Source of the DNA: Caecitellus pseudoparvulus
Lineage: Eukaryota; Protista; Bigyra: Bicosoecida
DNA: 8,707 nucleotides
Direction of reading: 5' to 3'
Assembly (NCBI GenBank): GCA_965644315.1
Contig: CBFFRQ010000059.1
Span: forward strand, 1 to 8,707
In this document: one piece after another, positions 1 through 8,707 of the stretch
Position numbering within the stretch: the first letter of the stretch is position 1
How the letters are laid out: every line of letters begins with the position of its first letter
Notes under the pieces: generated by a model
Databases searched by the model: none
Seen by the model: only the letters and a program-made list of their open reading frames with translations
What the model was told of the DNA's origin: nothing
Made by a program: the position numbers and the translations under genes

Positions 1-441
1 GTCGCGCACTTGAGCGGCAAGAGCACGATCTCCCGCATCTGGTGTAGGAAGTCCTCCATAACGGTTTATTCCAATGACTTCCAGTCTTTCACCATACGCT
101 GCGAATTCTTCAGGTGTGCGATAAACTTGAGGCTCTGTTTCAGCCTCAGACCATCGGGGTGACCCAGATGCAGCTGCGCCAGAAGCCTGAGTGTGAGTGC
201 TTCCTGAGTGAGTCCCAAAGGCACCAGGGAAAGGCGATTCATCCGAGAGAGTGCTTTGTCGCTGTTTGGGAGCAGGCTCAGAATCAGCTGGGCCTGTGGA
301 CGCGGGAGCTGGTGTGATCGCGCAACTGGTGGTGTTTGATATGCGAAGAAAAGCTGGGGCTTGTTGTCGATCTTCTCGACAATCTGGACTTTGCAGGCTC
401 AAAGCAATGGCTTGGACCAAGTCATCATCAAGTTCGTCCAT
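1..441 (-). CDS. 3'-partial hypothetical protein with N-terminal ubiquitin-interacting motif (>=147 aa)
   Basis: Hand translation: ATG at 441-439, no stop to base 1: MDELDDDLVQAIALSLQSPDCREDRQQAPAFLRISNTTSCAITPAPASTGPADSEPAPKQRQSTLSDESPFPGAFGTHSGSTHTQASGAAASGSPRWSEAETEPQVYRTPEEFAAYGERLEVIGINRYGGLPTPDAGDRALAAQVRD. The nearest upstream in-frame stop is TAA 633-631 and 441 is the first in-frame ATG after it. It is probably absent from the ORF track because its stop lies outside the window. Confidence 0.72.
   Translation of the reverse strand, partial: MDELDDDLVQAIALSLQSPDCREDRQQAPAFLRISNTTSCAITPAPASTGPADSEPAPKQRQSTLSDESPFPGAFGTHSGSTHTQASGAAASGSPRWSEAETEPQVYRTPEEFAAYGERLEVIGINRYGGLPTPDAGDRALAAQVRD
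388..441 (-). other. Ubiquitin-interacting motif (UIM)
   Basis: DELDDDLVQAIALSLQS matches the UIM consensus e-e-e-L-x-x-A-(I/L)-x-L-S-L-x-e. Only the final acidic position is missing. Confidence 0.75.
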
Positions 442-1325
442 TATGAAGGTTGAATCCTTGAGGCCTTCAGTGTGGTGGTGGATTCCAGACTTCGAGTCAA
501 AGAGAGCCCATGAGAGAGACGTGGCCGACCAACAACGCGACAATGTGGTTGAGAAGTCATTGACCAGCGGAAGAGTTACGTTGGAACCATGTCTGACTGC
601 AGGTTGATCTTGCTTTGATTGAAGGTGTAGTTATTGTTCTGGCTAAGGATAAACATCATCTGCAGCGCAGGGAGGAGCGTGCGTTTCCGCGGCGTTTCGT
701 CAAACCAAAGGCACACTTTGGATCTTGGCAAGGAGTGGGTGTTTCGGACGGCTTCGCCCTGAGAGGAAACAGATCTACCTCTGCATGCGTAAGGAACTGC
801 TATGCATCTATGGAGTTCCGTCAATGACATTCTCAAGGAGCAAGTGAGACCTTCACACGCGGTACCGTAAACGTTGAAGAAGAAACGGAAGAGCAGAACA
901 ACTCCGAAAGACAAGTATCCAGTGATCTGGACACAAACCGTACATGCACTGAAGAGCCTGGCACGGCCAGCTGCACACGCTCAGTTTTCACCGCATCTGG
1001 ACCGCGGCGGCATGTGTGCTGCGCTGCACGTGCACCCGAGTCACTTCCCTGCCGCACCCACGCAACCAATCGAGTTCCGCACATGACCCGACCCGACCAC
1101 CACACAACACCCACTCAACAGCATGCCCCACCAGCACCTTGCAGCCTGCATTGTCAGTGCAGCACTCCTGGCCACCCTCACCTCGGGTGCATGCTGTGCA
1201 GGCTTCGAGGTTTACTACACACCCTCAGATGTGTGCCGCCTCGCCAAATCCCTCAGCTCACACACCATCTCACCTCTACACCTCAAGTGGACACGTGTCT
1301 GCCCACAGCACTGAAGCCCAGGGCC
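442..1325. other. Intergenic region: probable TG-rich 3' UTR/trailer of the giant gene (~960-1325) and upstream region of the UIM gene (~442-950)
   Basis: No ORF with recognisable motifs. The plus strand is CA/CAC-rich at ~1050-1310 (cacacaacacccac, gacccgacccgacc), and GC is lower below ~950 (601-660 is 22/60 GC). Confidence 0.5.
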
Positions 1326-4300
1326 CTACCCCGTGTCCTGCACCATGCTGCGAGGCAGGACGGGCGAGTCCTCCACAAACGCCGGGAAGACGTCCTCGTC
1401 GCCACGCACCACCGTCACCGTGAAGCCTGGTGCTACGCTGGGCCACGATGCCGTCAGGGGCATGTTGGACTGCTCCCTGAAATGCTCTGGCTGAGCGGCA
1501 TAGGCCCCGATCACCCCCGCAGCTTCCCGTGACAAGTACACCTGCAGGACGCCTGGCTCCGTGACGACGAAAGGCGCCTCGGCGTTTGCGACGCGCCGCA
1601 CGCGGGACTCGTCGCAGTCGTCAGAGACGAAGATGACCACAAGGCGAGACAGACCCCATCCGCCCAGTCGCTGCGCGTCCTCGCGAGCCTTGCTGGTGTC
1701 CTTGGCCTGGTGCGCGGCGGGGTGGGCGCACTCCAGGATGAACGGCATGCCTTGCCGCAGACGCCCCAGCATGGCCACCGACAGCAGCGACGCAACGCTG
1801 GCTGTCGTGAGCACTTCGACGCCGGGCATGGCGCTGCCAGGCACGGCCACAAATGCCAGCGAGTCCGCCAGCGTCATGCCAACCACTCGCGGGCGCCAGA
1901 CAAGGCAGCCCGTCTGGATGCCGAGCGATGAGCCTTCCGTCGCGATGCGATCTCGCACGGTTGCCTGCACGGTGGGGTCGATGCTCGCCAGGTCGCAGGT
2001 GCGGCGCGGGTCTGTGATGAGGTAGGGTCCCGGGAGGAACGCCCCGCTGCGTGTCCTGCACTGCGCCCAGGGGTCGGACGCTCCACCGACAGTGGCAGTC
2101 GGGCGCAGGGCTCCATGTGTCATACCATTCACGGGTTTCCCTGTCGAATCACGGAACACTGCATGGCGCAGCAGGTGCAGCGCCCCACCAGTGCTCCACG
2201 ACCGGGCGATCTCGTACTCACGGTCTGCCACGCCCACCACTTGGTGGAACGACACCTCCCCCGTCTCACACGTGATAGTGGGCAGGTCGGGGTCAGGGCA
2301 GGTGGCGATGTGGGGCAGGTTGGCTGCGAGCAACTCGCCGTTGCGCACACTGGCTGACAGGTTGCTCGGCGCAAGGGAGCCCCCCTCTGCTTCCTTCTGC
2401 GACAGGGCTGCTCCCTGGAATCCTGTGTTCATGCCGCTCTGCACGAAATCTGAAGCTCCGATCACCGTCTTGCTGTGATGTGTGTACCGCGCGAGAGAAT
2501 TCAGCACGGTGGCAGGCCAGGAGGGTGGAAGCTCTGTGTCCCAGCTTTCCCGCGCAACGCGCATCGTGAACTCCATGCCGAAGCCCGACTTGCCCTGCAT
2601 GCGAGGAGGGTGCATCGGGTGCACAGCTGTGTCTGACAGCAAGTTGCACAGTCCCTGGGACACGTAGTGCCAGTGTGGAGGGATGCCTTGGGCGGGGTCG
2701 CCAGGGTGCCGGTACACCGTCACGTAGTCCAGCGGATCTGGCCCCCCCATTGACCACTTCGTCAGCGCTGTGTACTCCGTCGGGTTCGTTTGTTCCGGGT
2801 ACAGCCTCTCCATCACGTGTGAAATGGCTGCTCGCCCATTCAGATGCTGCAGCTGCACTTGTGCGGGGGGGGGGTTCCAAGCAGGCACACTTGGTGCTTG
2901 ACCCACCTCCCCACCCGTGGCATCATCGTCATGTGGTGCTTCGCGAGTGGCGGGAAGGGCAGTCGGCGCCTCATGGTCGTCATCGGCGCGCATGCAGCTC
3001 AACTGGCTCAGCGGCCACTCCCCTGCATCGGCAAGGTCAAGCAGACTCTGAGGAGGCATCTCCCCGTGCTCCACCACTGCCTGCGCAGCCCAAGCCGCAA
3101 GGCGCTTCGTCTCAGCCCTGCTGTGAGCTACATCAGCCTGCATGCGGCCCTCCAAGTCTTGCAACAGCCACTCTGCTGCCGATGCCACGTCCAGCTCCAG
3201 CTCCCCGGCCACGCCGCCTTGCAGCCCAGACACCATGCTGGGGTGTGCCTGGTCGTCCATTACAGCCTGGCTCAGCGCAAAGAAGTCGGAAGTGGGCGCC
3301 GCCAGCTGCAGCGAGCTGGTCGCCAGGACGCCAGCCACGCATTCTTCCCGAGCGAAGCCAAGCTGCAGCAACTCCTGCACAGCTGGCTCCAGTGCCCTGT
3401 TCACGCGGGCCATGTTCCGCGCAGCTTGCACTGACGCCATCTGTGCCAGTGCAGTCTTGCCGGCACCTGGCGTCCCAGACGTCTCCGGCACATCGCGTCC
3501 CAAGGGAAGCGTCTGCGCCAAGGCCGACCCAGCCACCTCGCCCAGCATCTCCGCAGCTGTCAACCAGCCACCCATGACTGCCACCCGAGCTGTGGCCAGC
3601 ACAAGCAGCGGGTGCTCCAGCAACCACGCCTTGGAGGCTTCGTCGTCGTCATTGGCGGACTGTGCCTGCAGCAGCTCCAGCTCGCGCAGGCCGCCCAGAC
3701 CCTGCCTCACGCCCACCATCGTTGCAGCATCATCCGTGGATACTCGCTGGGCATGCGTGTCGGGAGGACACTCTGGGCACCACGCCATGACTGCACCCAT
3801 GGCCGCACCCTGCACTTCCTGCACTCGCGCAGCCAAGTCTTCAGGCAGCGGTGGCAGCTTCCCCAGCACGCCTCGACACACCACCTGCAGCGCCCACACC
3901 CACAGTGCGGCGATGACATCCGGCACAGCCTGGGCCCGACTCCAGCCACAGGTCGAGTGCAGCCACCCGCCAGCGTAGGGAAGAAGGGTCACCTTGGCGT
4001 TCCGGGGGCCTGCTGGAATGTCACAGGGTCCGGCTTGGTGGGCTGCCTCCGCCACGTGGCACAGCAGCAAGCTCGCACTGCGCAGGAGCAGGGGCACGGC
4101 CGAGGCACACCTCACAACGGACACAGACACAGGCTGGACAGCCAGCACAGATGTCACTGCTCTGGCCAGCGCCGAGCTGCTGCCGACGCTCACCAGGTGC
4201 TCGTCGCACAGCTGCGGGCCATACGCATCGTGCAGCGCGAGCAGCTCTTCATACGCAGCCACTTGCGGCAGACCAGCACACGATGCCAAGCTGACTGCGC

Positions 4301-7300
4301 AGGTGGCCACTGCTACATCCCACTGCTGTCGTCGGCAGGCATCCGCTGTCAGATGCAGCACTGCTCCCTGCACTGAGCCAGTGCCTGGCCAGGCCGCCGA
4401 AGTCCGCCCGCTGCAGGAGACGGGGGCAAGGCGCAGTGCACGCCAGGTGTTCAATAGTGCACTGTGATGCAAGCCAGTTTGCTGCAGGAAGTACGCTGCG
4501 TTGGTGTGGCACGTCAGCGCCAGGGGGTGCCTGGCAGCCAGCACAGCCTTGATGGACTTCAGGCTGTTGATGCTGTGGTTTGAAGCTGTGCGCAAAACGC
4601 CAGCACCGTGAGCCATCCCTTCTGGACCCACCTGGGGAGTCACTTGCCCAGCCATGCCACAACCAGTCTGGGCAAAGATGCTGCCGCGACGTGGAAGGAT
4701 GGCATGAAGGGGGATGAGGGCAGGGGAGGAGCAGTACAGCGCTGCTTGGTGGCAAGCGCGGGGGTCCACACACGGCAGCCCGCACACCATCAAAAGATTC
4801 ACACCAAACAAAACGTCCCGTCTTTGCTGTCCGGTGCCACTCCCGGCGTTGCTGCCTCCCAGCTCCCCTGTCAGAGCGACCTCGACCGGGTACAGCGCAT
4901 GCCCTGCTGGCAGCCAGTGCTCCATGGAGCTAGCCACCATGGAGCTCGCCGACTCATGGCTGACGTAAACAGACAGCGATGACAGACCGGTCACGCCTTT
5001 GTTGTGGGAAGCCCGTACGCCGGCCAAGCATGACCGGGCTTCAAATGTCATGCCGTGACCCTGCATCGTCCGCCCCAAGCTGCTCTGCAGCAACGCCCCC
5101 AGCGCAAGCATGCCTACATCACGAGTCGTCCGATCCCCTGACTCTGCCGGGCCTTCCTGCATCGCCTGCTTCCCCTGGCGATGCATCACGCTGTGCCCGT
5201 CCGACGCCACCTGCCACCGCTCGTCCACGTCCCCTGCCACACGCAGACTGGCCGCGCTGGAGCTGACCAAGAAGTCCGTTTCACCAGAGTGCCCCCACAG
5301 TGCCTGCGTCATTTCACCGTGCAGAGACGTGAAGTACCACCACGCAGGCATGCTGCCGACAGCTGACCTGACTTGCAACTCGGTGGCAATGCTGCTGCCA
5401 GAGCCCGCGCAGGCGTCCATCCATCCACGAACCAGCTGTGCCATCGACTGGCGCCTCTCGAGAGTCGCAGCGCTCGCAGCATTGGTCCGTTGAAGCAAAT
5501 CGTTGCACGCGTTCGACAGTTGGCTGGCAAGGGGAAGCTGCTGCAGCTGCACCGCCGCCAAGGCAGCATGCCAGCCTGCCCAGAACGCAGTACGGCACAG
5601 CAGCGCCTCCAGCCCCATCAACTTGCGCAACAGCAACCACAACGTCATGGCTGCCCTGCCTGTCACAATCACTCCTTCCTGACTCACAAGTGCTGTTGCG
5701 CGCTTCACTGCTGCACTGCACTTTGACCACACGAGCGGCATGACCAGCTCCTTTAACTCACTGGCCACCACCATGCTCGTGCGCACAGCCTCCATGCCAA
5801 CGCGCAACGCATGGAGTGGTGCGCCTTGCTGCTGGCATGGTGCAGCCATTGACAGCAGCGCAGCGGCAGCCTGGCTCACCAGCTCCACAGCCCACGCACA
5901 CTCGTGCAAGCGCTGCCCATCTTCGACAGACAGTGCAAAGCCCCGCTCCTCCACACACCCTTCCAGCACACGGCACATGCTTCTCACGCCCCGCGTCAGG
6001 ACGGATGTGTCGATGCTGCCGCTTGCCCGAGGTGTCAGCGTCAGCGTTCCAGGTTCACCACCGGCACAGGCTTGTGCGATGGCCTGCCCCCACGCCTGCA
6101 GTGCACATGGCAACAGGTGCTTCAGGGCGAACACCTGGTCTTTAGGAGACTGCAGCATGGTCAGCAACACCAGCCTGGAGTGGGCCACAGCAAGCCCAGG
6201 TGTCGCCCGCACACACAGACGGCGCTTCAACATCACATCTGCAACAGCTGCACCCAGTGCCTGAGATAGCACGGCTCGCGAGCCCAGCACCACCTGCTGC
6301 TCAAGCTGCTTGGCAGCTCGCGCAGCTGCCACATGCCCCACCAGCGCTGCCCGCTGCTGAGCCTGGGCAGCGTGCCGCCGTGGCAGCAGGCGCAACAACT
6401 CGAACGTCTCCACGCCGTCCACACAGAAAAACCGCATGCTGGCTCCACACAGCCGCTGAGCAATGCCGAATGCATGTCGTCGGTATGTCTCAGGTAGGCC
6501 TGCCCAGAGGCCGGCCCCCGTCAGTGCCCACTCCTCCGGCGGCACAAGACCAGGGTACTTCCCAAGCAAGGACGCCAGCAGCCGGGTCTGCTCCTGCACA
6601 TCACTGCTGTTGCCGCTGCCCCCCACGCCAGAGTACTGCAGTCGAGACGTGAATAACGCCTCGGCGCTGTCATGGGCCAACTGTGCAGCGGACTGCAGCA
6701 CGCGCTCAGATGACTCGCTGGAACCTGACCGATCTCTCACACGCGCCGTCACGCCCCGCAACGCCGCACGCAGCTCAGCGTAGAAACAACGCGCAATGCC
6801 GTACGCGAGCATACTGTCCTGCATGGCCCGCAGTGCCGCCACAGCGGACTCTGGCAGGCACCTCACAGCCGCGGCATGCACCTGGAGAAGCACTCGAATG
6901 ACATGGGCCAGGCGGCCAAGATGCCGCGTGTTGCAGCCAGCCGAGTGCAAGTGCAGCTTCCAGTCCAGCTCTCGCACGTACACGTGGTCAACACTGGACA
7001 GGGCGTGTGCTAGCGCGTCATCTTGCAGGGACCCTCGCGGGACAGCAGGCACCAACAACGGCAAGTGTGGGGAGGCAGCGATGCTCACGGGCGGTGCTCC
7101 TCGCGCAAGTGGCACAGCTTTCAGTGCCCCCAGTCCTTGTGCCTGCAGTGCCGCTACAGTGGCACGGGTATCATACCCCTGGGCAGCGTACTCCCCCAGC
7201 ACCTCGGTGGCGTGCTCCAGTGACGGCTGGGGAGCAGCGACTTTATCACCAGGCTCAGCGTCAAGGTCGGCAGCACCCCCTTGGTGTGCCCCAAACTCCT

Positions 7301-8707
7301 TTCGCAGCAGGCGATTCATGGAGAACTCTCCCCGCTCCACTGTCCACTCGGGAAAGGTGAATGCATCGTCACGTCGGCTTGGTGAGCTCTCGTGTGCGAC
7401 AGTGTGCCCAGCCACTGTAGCATCGGCGCCCACACAGTCCGCAGCCTTCCACACAGCCAAGTGACCCCCTGTGGCCCGCTCAATGAGCTGCGCAGCCAGC
7501 TGGGGCAGGGCCCTCTCCAGCATCGCATCTGTGGCATGCTGAACAGGTGGGTTGTATACGTGGTAGTCGGTGCTTCCCCAGGGCGTGAAGGCATCAGCTG
7601 ACAGAGGGACAGGCGACGCCTGCACAGCTTCAGGGCGCAGCAGCTGAGTCAGGTGCGCTCCCTTGGGGCGCTCAGACACCATCAACAGAGGCCCACGCTG
7701 TGCGGGCTGACCATCACGTGCGAGCCCTGCTGCAGCTCGCGTCGGTTGGGCAAGGACTCGCTCGGCGTGCGCCAGCACAGAAGCTTCCACTCCACACCTC
7801 CTCAAGTGCTGCAGCAGTGCAGGCACATTCAATGCACAGCACACTACACTGGCGAATGGCAACACAGTTGTGATCAATGCAGTCCCTGGGTTCGCAGGCA
7901 CCTCGCATGGTGCCACATGGTCAGGTAGCGCGGCACCAACCAACGCCCCCCATGCATGATGCTGAAAGGTTGCCTTGTTGGCCACGGGTACATGCCGTAG
8001 CCGCACACCATCATTCGCTCCTGGTACAGGCACAATACACGTAGCTGCCTGCCACTGCGGGGGCGCCTCTGGAGGCATGAGCCTGGCCGTGTCCAGCAAG
8101 AACATGTGCCCATCCCGCCCACAGTGCCCCTCCACATCCCCTGCCAAGTACAGCTGCTTGTTGCCCACAGGGTGCCGTGCCAGGTTCAGATGTGCCGCCA
8201 GTTGTGCAATGGAAGATCGCAGGGCCTCCTCGTCGTCGTGCACTGTGACCATTGCGTTGGCACTGCCGTAGCAGAGTGTGTCGCTGCCGATGGGCAGGAG
8301 GGATGTGGCCACCACCCTGTACCCCAGCACATCCACCACACAGTGCAGGGGGTACCGCAGCCCCGGCACTGCTGCTGCAGTGATGCTGGATATGCCTCGT
8401 AGCTCAGCCTTGGCGGCCTTTTCTGCCTGGTTGTTATTTTTCCCGTATATCCACTCCGTATCCATGGCAAACTTGAACAGGACACCGCCCAGGATGTACT
8501 TGCTGCCCCCTGCCACACCCCCGATGTCGATGGGCGGCAGACTTTTCTGGGCATCGGCCAGAGGCAGCTCGGCTACGAGGATCTCCGCGATGGGCGCACA
8601 GGCCGCGACGAAGGCTGAGCTGATGCGCGTGAGGGCGCCCTCTCGCATGGCGGCTTGCTCCAGGGACAGGGGTGTGAGGTCCAGGATGTCATGCAGCTCG
8701 GCGGTCC
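1326..8707 (-). CDS. Giant multidomain protein, 5'-partial (>=2459 aa): Clu domain + Clu-central + unassigned helical region + UBA-like + full SUFU (N- and C-lobe)
   Basis: Stop-free frame from TAG (1328-1326) to the window edge. The 19 codons upstream of the 8648 ATG are open (TAELHDILDLTPLSLEQAA-MREGALTRISSAFVAAC) and resemble the Clu-domain start (CLUH DWNEELQ...[20 protein letters not shown]), so the true start lies beyond 8707. Recognisable family motifs occur in this same frame at both ends. Confidence 0.93.
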   Translation of the reverse strand, partial: TAELHDILDLTPLSLEQAAMREGALTRISSAFVAACAPIAEILVAELPLADAQKSLPPIDIGGVAGGSKYILGGVLFKFAMDTEWIYGKNNNQAEKAAKAELRGISSITAAAVPGLRYPLHCVVDVLGYRVVATSLLPIGSDTLCYGSANAMVTVHDDEEALRSSIAQLAAHLNLARHPVGNKQLYLAGDVEGHCGRDGHMFLLDTARLMPPEAPPQWQAATCIVPVPGANDGVRLRHVPVANKATFQHHAWGALVGAALPDHVAPCEVPANPGTALITTVLPFASVVCCALNVPALLQHLRRCGVEASVLAHAERVLAQPTRAAAGLARDGQPAQRGPLLMVSERPKGAHLTQLLRPEAVQASPVPLSADAFTPWGSTDYHVYNPPVQHATDAMLERALPQLAAQLIERATGGHLAVWKAADCVGADATVAGHTVAHESSPSRRDDAFTFPEWTVERGEFSMNRLLRKEFGAHQGGAADLDAEPGDKVAAPQPSLEHATEVLGEYAAQGYDTRATVAALQAQGLGALKAVPLARGAPPVSIAASPHLPLLVPAVPRGSLQDDALAHALSSVDHVYVRELDWKLHLHSAGCNTRHLGRLAHVIRVLLQVHAAAVRCLPESAVAALRAMQDSMLAYGIARCFYAELRAALRGVTARVRDRSGSSESSERVLQSAAQLAHDSAEALFTSRLQYSGVGGSGNSSDVQEQTRLLASLLGKYPGLVPPEEWALTGAGLWAGLPETYRRHAFGIAQRLCGASMRFFCVDGVETFELLRLLPRRHAAQAQQRAALVGHVAAARAAKQLEQQVVLGSRAVLSQALGAAVADVMLKRRLCVRATPGLAVAHSRLVLLTMLQSPKDQVFALKHLLPCALQAWGQAIAQACAGGEPGTLTLTPRASGSIDTSVLTRGVRSMCRVLEGCVEERGFALSVEDGQRLHECAWAVELVSQAAAALLSMAAPCQQQGAPLHALRVGMEAVRTSMVVASELKELVMPLVWSKCSAAVKRATALVSQEGVIVTGRAAMTLWLLLRKLMGLEALLCRTAFWAGWHAALAAVQLQQLPLASQLSNACNDLLQRTNAASAATLERRQSMAQLVRGWMDACAGSGSSIATELQVRSAVGSMPAWWYFTSLHGEMTQALWGHSGETDFLVSSSAASLRVAGDVDERWQVASDGHSVMHRQGKQAMQEGPAESGDRTTRDVGMLALGALLQSSLGRTMQGHGMTFEARSCLAGVRASHNKGVTGLSSLSVYVSHESASSMVASSMEHWLPAGHALYPVEVALTGELGGSNAGSGTGQQRRDVLFGVNLLMVCGLPCVDPRACHQAALYCSSPALIPLHAILPRRGSIFAQTGCGMAGQVTPQVGPEGMAHGAGVLRTASNHSINSLKSIKAVLAARHPLALTCHTNAAYFLQQTGLHHSALLNTWRALRLAPVSCSGRTSAAWPGTGSVQGAVLHLTADACRRQQWDVAVATCAVSLASCAGLPQVAAYEELLALHDAYGPQLCDEHLVSVGSSSALARAVTSVLAVQPVSVSVVRCASAVPLLLRSASLLLCHVAEAAHQAGPCDIPAGPRNAKVTLLPYAGGWLHSTCGWSRAQAVPDVIAALWVWALQVVCRGVLGKLPPLPEDLAARVQEVQGAAMGAVMAWCPECPPDTHAQRVSTDDAATMVGVRQGLGGLRELELLQAQSANDDDEASKAWLLEHPLLVLATARVAVMGGWLTAAEMLGEVAGSALAQTLPLGRDVPETSGTPGAGKTALAQMASVQAARNMARVNRALEPAVQELLQLGFAREECVAGVLATSSLQLAAPTSDFFALSQAVMDDQAHPSMVSGLQGGVAGELELDVASAAEWLLQDLEGRMQADVAHSRAETKRLAAWAAQAVVEHGEMPPQSLLDLADAGEWPLSQLSCMRADDDHEAPTALPATREAPHDDDATGGEVGQAPSVPAWNPPPAQVQLQHLNGRAAISHVMERLYPEQTNPTEYTALTKWSMGGPDPLDYVTVYRHPGDPAQGIPPHWHYVSQGLCNLLSDTAVHPMHPPRMQGKSGFGMEFTMRVARESWDTELPPSWPATVLNSLARYTHHSKTVIGASDFVQSGMNTGFQGAALSQKEAEGGSLAPSNLSASVRNGELLAANLPHIATCPDPDLPTITCETGEVSFHQVVGVADREYEIARSWSTGGALHLLRHAVFRDSTGKPVNGMTHGALRPTATVGGASDPWAQCRTRSGAFLPGPYLITDPRRTCDLASIDPTVQATVRDRIATEGSSLGIQTGCLVWRPRVVGMTLADSLAFVAVPGSAMPGVEVLTTASVASLLSVAMLGRLRQGMPFILECAHPAAHQAKDTSKAREDAQRLGGWGLSRLVVIFVSDDCDESRVRRVANAEAPFVVTEPGVLQVYLSREAAGVIGAYAAQPEHFREQSNMPLTASWPSVAPGFTVTVVRGDEDVFPAFVEDSPVLPRSMVQDTG
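1395..1829 (-). other. SUFU C-terminal domain (SUFU_C-like)
   Basis: MPGVEVLTTASVASLLSVAMLGRLRQGMPF aligns without gaps to human LESVHLKFNQESGALIPLCLRGRLLHGRHF. Then VIFVS~ITFVS, ANAEAPF~ATEEHPY, LQVYLS~LQILLT, MPLTASWP~LPKEYSWP. Confidence 0.8.
1896..2837 (-). other. Suppressor of fused (SUFU) N-terminal domain
   Basis: RLYPEQTNP, KWSMGGPDPLDYV, IPPHWHYVSQGL, SGFGMEFTMRV, PPSWPATVLNSLARY, GEVSFHQVVGV, GPYLITDPRR, IDPTVQATVRDRIATEGSSL are collinear with human SUFU as recalled (RLYPDQPNP, KYWLGGPDPLDYV, IPEHWHYISFGL, SGFGFELTFRL, PPTWPAELMQGLARY, GVVTFLQIVGV, GPWLITDMRR, IDPHLQERVDKGIETDGSNL). Confidence 0.95.
2865..2874. repeat. 10-nt G homopolymer (C10 on coding strand, encodes N-PPP)
   Basis: gc-gggggggggg-tt at 2865-2874, about 9 codons before the first SUFU motif. 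Confidence 0.9.
3162..3389 (-). other. UBA-like (ubiquitin-associated) domain, split by a ~40-aa insertion
   Basis: EPAVQELLQLGFAREECVAGVLAT fits UBA helix 1, the (M/L)GF loop and helix 2. LDVASAAEWLL fits helix 3 (dve.Av.wLl) but comes after an insert. Confidence 0.6.
6755..6965 (-). other. Clu-central (eIF3 p135-like) motif region
   Basis: LHSAGCNTRHLGRL (within 6909-6956) matches the Clu-central signature (l/m)H..GIN.RYLG. It is followed by MLAYGIARCFYAELRAALR, resembling the E...R..K..lr..l helix. Confidence 0.72.
7476..8707 (-). other. Clu domain (clustered mitochondria/CLUH/TIF31 family; GGxAGGxKY-type), with a ~130-aa insertion
   Basis: Ordered motifs: GGVAGGSKY, LFKFAMD, AEKAAKAELRG, PLHCVVDVLGYRVVATSLLPI, TLCYGS, LAAHLNLARHPV, DVEGHCGRDGHMFLLDTARLMPPE, then LLRPEAVQASPVPLSADAF. 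They parallel the Clu consensus (VDYRGYRV.AQS..P, YGS, E.KG..G.DGR.Y.LDL.R.FPP, LRPE). Confidence 0.88.

Follow-up and report, generated by a model that had tools for sequence, protein, structure and literature searches.

A conserved, undescribed fusion of a predicted kinase-like Clu domain with a two-lobed SUFU in Caecitellus pseudoparvulus and related sequences

The 8,707-nucleotide stretch of Caecitellus pseudoparvulus DNA analysed here as a whole (contig CBFFRQ010000059.1 of assembly GCA_965644315.1; hereafter, the window) carries on its minus strand a gene in which a Clu domain is joined to a Suppressor-of-fused (SUFU) region. The CLU-SUFU fusion is genuine: a single gene encodes both parts in one protein, about 2,600 residues long. 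The architecture is undescribed and conserved, the kinds of its components are known ones, and its Clu domain is predicted, from a structural model and from the conservation of candidate catalytic residues, to be an active atypical kinase.

Between 8705 and 1326, the minus strand holds 2,459 stop-free codons in a frame open at its 5′ end, and none of the other five reading frames of the window is open for more than 335 codons. The first-pass annotation of this DNA had placed a Clu part and both SUFU lobes in a single stop-free frame of more than 7.3 kb, which is the frame found. It had given the gene as 1326..8707; the domains do lie there, while the start does not and is most likely at 441 to 1 of the window, as discussed further on. 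When the whole protein was scanned with Pfam, CLU matched residues 3-214 (E 7.1e-42) and SUFU residues 1988-2178 (E 4.8e-22), as had been anticipated; the other anticipated matches fared differently, UBA and eIF3_p135 being weak and under cut-off, and the SUFU C-terminal lobe being seen by profile and model and not by Pfam. The features of the main frame, in protein order, are as follows (P0001-P0003 are relatives introduced in the next paragraph).

7455..8705, minus strand: CLU domain (residues 1-417 of the open frame), protein-kinase-like in fold and interrupted by an insertion at about 215-345 (Pfam CLU and model)
8091..8522, minus strand: candidate active site, composed of a Gly-rich loop G62-G67 (8505-8522), K78 (8472-8474), E101 (8403-8405), D190-x-E192 (8130-8138) and D205 (8091-8093) (conservation and model secondary structure)
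6750..6953, minus strand: Clu central (eIF3_p135-like) helical region (Pfam eIF3_p135, E 0.043 on the excised piece, weak)
3414..6365, minus strand: divergent middle region of about 980 residues, likely a helical or TPR-like arm (collinear in P0001-P0003)
3141..3383, minus strand: UBA-like domain with an insertion ahead of the third helix (UBA and UBA_7 below Pfam cut-offs; motif alignment)
1941..2870, minus strand: SUFU N-terminal lobe (Pfam SUFU and phmmer to human SUFU)
1353..1940, minus strand: SUFU C-terminal lobe (profile alignment and model; Pfam SUFU_C without match)
1326..1328, minus strand: stop codon that ends the 2,459-codon frame

A search with the SUFU part, restricted to proteins of 1,352-4,304 aa, scored 7,991 candidates and gave four hits, three of which (P0001-P0003, 2,302-2,337 aa) carry CLU and SUFU and are collinear along their length with the window protein at 28-31% identity. 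The full HMMER search gave 635 hits, and the results reported here come from the best 150 of the 635; Pfam was run on 37 of these 150, on P0001-P0003 and on two more, which makes every listed protein longer than 900 aa. A fifth CLU-SUFU protein, P0031 (1,977 aa), was found among the matches listed, and P0035 and P0044, in which no CLU was seen, look like pieces of such proteins. Within the same matches, CLU comes first and SUFU second in all five fusions. The four relatives were each called as one protein, and their contigs measure 39.7, 7.5, 113 and 20.7 kb. The five fusions form one clade (97/93) in a tree of 24 Clu domains, whose rows do not include CLUH orthologues, and the SUFU tree nests them in the same way. 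A search of the Atlas with the whole of P0031 gave no usable match, and its Clu part led to CLU clusters only (scores 0.80-0.83, to be taken as a lead).

Because there are four independent full-length relatives with the same domain order, and because the Clu and SUFU trees are congruent, the fusion is not a chimera; the first-pass annotation had named the same fusion in other sequences as a check. An assembly artefact, either a chimeric Clu/SUFU join or a dead duplicated copy, is in consequence very improbable. Certain observations do weigh on its side. The window is a collapsed loop, none of the contig pieces listed for four sequencing runs reaches from CLU to SUFU, and in run X3 only, some contigs carry frame-breaking single-base deletions at about ten listed places (1514, 2258, 4366, 4422, 4523, 5096, 5531, 7193, 7946, 8059, 8518), which may be errors or broken copies. 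Opposed to these, apart from the relatives and the trees, is the fact that contigs of runs X5 and X9, among them two X9 pieces (1.4 and 1.9 kb), overlap to cover the gene at about 93-98% identity.

Concerning the SUFU part, comparison with human SUFU by phmmer gave E 1e-39, and no other part of the protein is as well conserved (the N-lobe block has 50-53% identity). Pfam SUFU_C found no match in the window protein; a profile built from the four closest proteins has an alignment that extends to the human C-lobe, where the stretch reaches E 1.2e-10, and the C-lobe aligns with both animal and bacterial two-lobed SUFU. An AlphaFold model of residues 1946-2451, made from a 44-row alignment, had a predicted local distance difference test (pLDDT) value of 87 and matched full-length human SUFU with E 2e-38 and a template-modelling (TM) score of 0.81 over the target. 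The profile alignment and the model thus bear out the complete SUFU with both lobes that had been read from the DNA. A Sufu-Fu structure appears among the structural matches of the same model.

The relationships of this SUFU were studied with 151 SUFU-domain proteins, of which the 118 covering at least 230 profile positions entered a quick tree. A careful tree of 50 rows, rooted on the bacterial-type rows as outgroup, contained all 10 rows of the fused-type clade (labelled protist from context), 20 animal-type rows (8 of the 20 bear animal names, one of them via a cluster member) and 20 bacterial-type rows (relatives of 14 such proteins were found at 37-56% identity in bacterial genomes). The fused-type clade (95/84) came out as sister to the animal-type clade (98/94), and the bacterial-type rows split off at 100/100. 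As judged by sequence and within this sampling, the window SUFU thus belongs to the sister clade of animal SUFU. SuFu is reported in chlorophytes, ascomycetes and choanoflagellates (PMC3482391), and such sequences were not identified among the tree set. A two-lobed SUFU of about 350 aa also occurs in bacteria (Actinomycetota, Bacillota, Myxococcota, Pseudomonadota), since 574 of 601 matched stretches lie in prokaryote genomes (L006-L085; P0004, P0058, P0059); Pfam SUFU_C found no match in the two bacterial proteins scanned in full (P0004, P0095). On these sequences, the two-lobed form is not confined to eukaryotes.

Bacterial SuFu domains are described as immunity proteins against varied toxins (PMC3482391, PMC3113570), and this bears on one alternative for the function of the fusion, namely a defence receptor of a bacteria-eating cell, whose SUFU would trap incoming toxins or effectors while its kinase and ubiquitin modules would destroy them or raise an alarm. 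The gene appears duplicated, with a variable copy number and differences of 2-7% between runs, which would also suit defence. Against it, SUFU is here the best conserved part and not a hypervariable one, it groups with animal SUFU and not with the bacterial forms, and the gene of P0003 stands among ordinary genes without sign of an array. On balance, we consider a defence role unlikely.

The contacts of human SUFU with GLI include Tyr147 and Asp159, whose pocket receives the GLI histidine, and a His164-Glu376 pair acts as latch (PMC3852661). The equivalents of the first two are Y2074 and D2086 in the window protein, Tyr/Glu in P0001-P0003 and P0044, and Tyr/Asp in P0035, the Asp159 position being Asp or Glu in six of the seven fused-type rows that cover the site. 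There are points that weigh against a GLI-like clamp. The Asp159 position is His in P0031. The latch is not kept, being Asn and Ser here and the pair being absent in all fused-type rows, with an uncertain alignment near 164. Moreover, Tyr147 is kept in bacterial SUFU too, so its conservation may be structural.

The domain of CLUH has been described with a protein-kinase-like topology, HopBF1 being the nearest structure and key catalytic residues being changed, and CLUH was called a probable pseudokinase, with its original chemistry left as a question (PMC10041065); CLU is likewise termed pseudokinase in PMC10870513. Residues 1-417 of the window frame were modelled from a 23-row alignment, with pLDDT 76 and a poorly modelled insertion. 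Kinases fill the Foldseek list for this model (OspG, BRI1, E about 0.01), OspG having a probability of 0.98-0.99. In structural alignments, HopBF1 scored Z 6.2 (root-mean-square deviation, rmsd, 4.0, with 143 aligned) and OspG Z 5.9, at 13-15% identity to the Clu domain. According to the model, the Clu domain is of a kinase-like bilobed fold, and its nearest enzyme agrees with that of PMC10041065.

The candidate active site is strongly conserved. All 13 motif positions are identical in the five CLU-SUFU proteins. Among the 24 Clu domains, K78 is found in 24 of 24, and E101, D190, E192 and D205 in 23 of 24 each; the motif set with the Gly loop included is kept in 22-24 of the 24, at an overall identity of about 33-47%. 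In the model, the third strand bears K78 and the helix after it E101; D190-x-E192 precedes a strand, and D205 follows the next one. By comparison with general kinase motifs, K78 would be the ATP-binding Lys, E101 the Glu of helix C, and the acidic residues after them the catalytic and metal-binding ones. By sequence, candidate catalytic residues are kept, unlike in CLUH as the latter is described (PMC10041065). Since the fold is kinase-like and these residues are kept, the word scaffold, applied to the Clu part in the first-pass annotation, understates this domain, and an active atypical kinase is the prediction.

Several results weigh against that prediction. The best Foldseek E is 0.011, none being under 0.001, and Z values of about 6 are middling and may reflect a common arrangement. 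The top structural match by far is no enzyme of the above list but a Toxoplasma preconoidal-ring Clu chain (Z 18.4, rmsd 3.7, 271 aligned, 16% identity), and the Clu proteins CGP and PCR10 (Clu plus TPR-like), which are among the core components of that ring, are described as structural (PMC12819142). The best solved match to the Clu model is, specifically, PDB 9YA0, chains EA and JA; the word kinase is absent from the main text of PMC12819142 on the ring Clu proteins. A cilium or cortical-cytoskeleton scaffold could be proposed on this basis, with the Clu fold, with or without bound nucleotide, as docking platform and SUFU tethering partners. It would be in keeping with the position of CGP/PCR10, with Trypanosoma FLAM3, a flagellar protein with an N-terminal CLU domain (PMC4541047), and with the work of animal SUFU at cilia (PMC9695228). 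We regard this scaffold as rather unlikely, as the identity to the ring chain is only 16%, the invariant Lys/Glu/Asp/Asp set argues for chemistry, and the ubiquitin-type modules suit signalling or turnover better.

The Clu part had been read in the first pass as an mRNA- and mitochondria-associated module, a view that found no support. CLU_N and GSKIP domains precede CLU in CLUH (PMC10041065; for the canonical CLU architecture, see also bioRxiv 10.64898/2026.03.13.711532). With Pfam, CLU_N was matched neither in the main frame nor in the 1-543 frame, nor in any of 19 related Clu proteins, and the C-terminus of the window protein gave no TPR match. Lacking a CLU_N match, the window protein is, on sequence, probably not a CLUH orthologue, and belongs with those protist Clu proteins that have varied partners; two such proteins are cytoskeletal. 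The 19 other Clu proteins carry RCC1, SPRY, LRR, ankyrin, PH/MORN, RhoGEF, UBR box, amidase or TPR partners, or none recognised, and SUFU was found in 0 of the 19; named hits among protist Clu proteins are from Pelomyxa and Balamuthia. Partner swapping onto the Clu domain is, from these sequences, common in protists, and this lowers the surprise of a new partner. The partner-fused protist Clu domains P0006-P0024 nearly all keep the kinase-like motif set, which is lost in P0010 (Clu-LamG-LRR). To judge by these motifs, protist Clu fusions may form a large family of active atypical kinases that has gone unrecognised.

A CLUH-like factor that binds mRNA or ribosomes for mitochondrial proteins and has SUFU where CLUH has its TPR end is for the same reasons quite improbable: besides the CLU_N result, it is opposed by the candidate catalytic residues, kept here unlike in CLUH, and by the signalling-type partners of the nearest Clu relatives. 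What it has in its favour is the CLU domain and the weak eIF3_p135 region in common with CLUH, together with a DnaJ-C11-like gene that adjoins the gene of P0003, probably by chance. The eIF3_p135 match had E 0.004-0.02 in P0002 and P0003 and 2e-04 in P0031, and a profile of the Clu-central region matches P0031 (independent E 5e-07) and other Clu proteins. The middle region that follows is 12-28% identical to P0001-P0003 per 150-residue block. Pfam gave nothing, TPR included, for residues 781-1764, and profiles of three middle segments had zero matches among 176 other proteins; the middle region of P0031 has a TPR_12 match (E 4.9e-07).

Motifs of the ubiquitin-interacting (UIM-like), UBA-like, ZZ and RanBP/NZF types recur across the family in differing combinations. 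Zinc fingers of the ZZ and NZF types have roles in recognising ubiquitin or degrons. Apart from the UBA-like domain listed above, the following were noted.

391..429, minus strand: N-terminal UIM-like ubiquitin-interacting motif (Pfam UIM, E 0.0098 on a 40-aa piece, below cut-off)
P0031 at about 1320-1500 and about 1790-1815, P0035 at 214-245 and 567-591, P0044 at 249-276: ZZ-type and RanBP/NZF-type zinc fingers (Pfam)

In the whole window protein, UBA matched residues 1775-1802 with E 0.11, and the excised 96-aa piece gave E 0.0035-0.006. A UBA-like match stands at the same place in P0002 (E 0.007), P0001 (E 0.11) and P0003 (E 0.013), all below cut-offs, and another in P0035. A UIM-like match was seen at residues 9-21 of P0031 (E 0.024) and also in P0035. 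The ZZ match is clear in P0035 (E 1.2e-04) and weak in P0031 (E 0.37), and a RanBP/NZF-type finger lies between the SUFU lobes of P0035 (E 1e-08) and P0044 (E 2.4e-04), where animal SUFU has a disordered region. Among these motifs, two alone exceed the Pfam cut-off, the ZZ and RanBP fingers of P0035. The assignments have some points against them: the bit scores of the window protein fall short of the Pfam cut-offs (UBA 16.9-17.7 versus 22.4/27; UIM 16.1 versus 21), nothing matched in the UBA-like stretch of P0031, and a UBA-region profile run against 176 other proteins had no hits. As to the earlier suggestion that UBA adds ubiquitin binding, it can be said that a likely link with ubiquitin is supported by the UBA- and UIM-like motifs here and by the UIM-like, ZZ and RanBP/NZF motifs of the relatives, and that the UBA itself is plausible yet under the Pfam cut-off.

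Taking these data together, we give about an even chance to the window protein being an atypical kinase that reads ubiquitin and holds its target with SUFU as clamp, a proposal built on sequence comparison and models. The UIM-like and UBA-like motifs (and the ZZ and RanBP/NZF fingers in relatives) would bring the protein to ubiquitinated proteins. SUFU would close on an extended peptide of the partner as human SUFU does on GLI, although the partner would not be GLI and the latch residues differ. The Clu domain would then pass phosphate, or another group derived from ATP, to the partner or to itself, with altered sequestration or turnover of the partner as the outcome, and the long middle arm would space the Clu and SUFU ends. 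By analogy, such a logic of kinase, SUFU and ubiquitin resembles that of Fused, SUFU and GLI in animals (PMC9695228), which is not to claim that Clu and Fused are homologous.

Concerning the 5′ end of the gene, position 8707 is joined to position 1, with one base between, by contigs of three of four runs (X1, X3, X5). The frame running from 543 to 1 ends in Arg-Asp, and the junction base plus the last two bases of the window form an in-frame Trp codon. A Trp occupies exactly this position in 21 of 22 Clu relatives, and Arg-Asp-Trp is present in the three closest. Because of the contigs that join 8707 to 1 and of the conserved in-frame Trp, the open reading frame at 1-441 is the likely N-terminus; from the ATG at 441 the protein would have 2,607 aa. 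The features of this segment are two.

1..441, minus strand: likely N-terminal 147 codons of the CLU-SUFU gene, ATG at 441-439, with a TTG upstream at 543 extending the frame (crosses the 8707/1 junction)
442..950, no strand: spacer that separates the stop of one gene copy from the next copy's start and belongs to the loop-only segment 1-950 (contig branch near 950)

Two results weigh against this N-terminus. Comparison of the 1-543 frame with the N-termini of relatives gave nothing significant, since 66, 200 and 455 of 500 shuffles scored as high, and the GC content at third codon positions is 0.27-0.41 in 1-441 versus 0.71, with a step up to 0.78 at the junction. About 148 residues would precede CLU here, compared with 60-90 in P0001-P0003. 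The loop-only segment 1-950 has about 52% GC versus about 65% in the body, and the compositional steps at both of its ends coincide with assembly branch points. Rfam found no match in 1-1500, Pfam found none in two short open reading frames of 442-950, and no direct or inverted repeats of any meaning were found in the whole window.

Near 950, contigs of all four runs lead also into a different flank, and past 8707 run X9 continues into other sequence, not alignable to 1-950 even at 80%. Contig depths, which are not copy numbers, were 14.8 (loop piece), 16.6 (flank) and 26.6 (shared body) in X5, and 101, 42 and about 140-160, respectively, in X1. Run X9 has no loop piece, its flank and body being in one contig of depth 29.9, and in X11 the depths are 3-5 and do not add up. 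The window is likely circularly permuted, a tandem array of one to few gene copies, variable in number, having collapsed into a circle of 8,708 bases. Two kinds of 5′ end seem to exist, and gene conversion homogenising the bodies would explain them. An extrachromosomal circle was ranked below the tandem array, the loop having no second gene and the X5 depths of loop and flank being about equal. A viral origin was rejected with 0 of 231 pattern matches in viral contigs being relatives, and a plasmid origin with no plasmid match. Joints in X5 with skips of 108, 138 and 79 bases, and 29 letters on the short side, were set aside, as such joints often come from other organisms.

The setting of the P0003 gene is an ordinary eukaryotic one, with these neighbours.

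L002 613-1635 and L001 2157-3182: a DnaJ-like C11 C-terminal domain protein on one side and an alpha/beta hydrolase on the other (neighbour annotation)

With respect to novelty, a literature search for Clu domain together with SUFU found no paper, coverage of subscription journals being thin, and to this extent the earlier remark that no described protein of this architecture was known is sustained. Nor was the fusion found in the available texts on the origin of SUFU or on CLU as a kinase (PMC3417536, PMC2362128, PMC3113570 and PMC3482391 among them); the supplementary architecture lists of PMC3482391 and PMC3113570 might contain one. In published accounts, SUFU is an immunity domain of bacteria that was taken up into Hedgehog signalling in animals (PMC3417536, PMC3482391), and GLI is reported absent from protists (PMC9695228). 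Five members of what is, on the present sampling, the sister clade of animal SUFU carry SUFU on a kinase-fold Clu domain with ubiquitin-type modules. The fusion is a concrete candidate for the role of SUFU in eukaryotes without GLI, and these Clu domains, with their intact motif set, are obvious material on the original chemistry of the CLUH fold; the conserved architecture makes both questions testable. A bolder idea, which we hold as doubtful, is that the fused protein preserves a pre-animal job of SUFU, that of holding targets for a Clu kinase gated by ubiquitin. On this view, animal SUFU would be such a clamp released from its Clu partner and now working with GLI and with a kinase on another protein, Fused; the Clu domains of protists would be a large and overlooked family of active atypical kinases, with CLUH as the dead member.

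Among known systems, CLUH/Clu1/clueless/FRIENDLY (PF13236, PF12807) resemble the window protein in the kinase-like CLU, the long middle arm and, by a weak match, the Clu-central helical region; the window protein differs by having no CLU_N or C-terminal TPR match, by keeping candidate catalytic residues and by its UBA-like and SUFU end. The protist multi-domain Clu proteins (Pelomyxa, Balamuthia, CGP/PCR10, FLAM3) share the same Clu domain (33-47% identity) and motif set, whereas the five SUFU-bearing proteins are a clade of their own. HopBF1 and OspG are the nearest enzymes to the Clu model, a resemblance of fold only, and are small bacterial effectors; OspG is activated by an E2-ubiquitin conjugate (PMC9950578). 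Bacterial Imm-SuFu, the two-lobed forms of about 350 aa included, has the same fold, but is separated by the 100/100 branch, and no Clu or ubiquitin modules were seen in the bacterial forms. Finally, animal Suppressor of fused (human SUFU, PDB 4KM9/4BLB; Drosophila, 4KMA) has in common with the window protein both lobes and the Tyr147/Asp159 pocket. Unlike this stand-alone protein of about 480 aa, the SUFU of the window is fused to the end of a 2,600-aa protein, has no latch, bears lineage-specific insertions and stands outside the animal clade.

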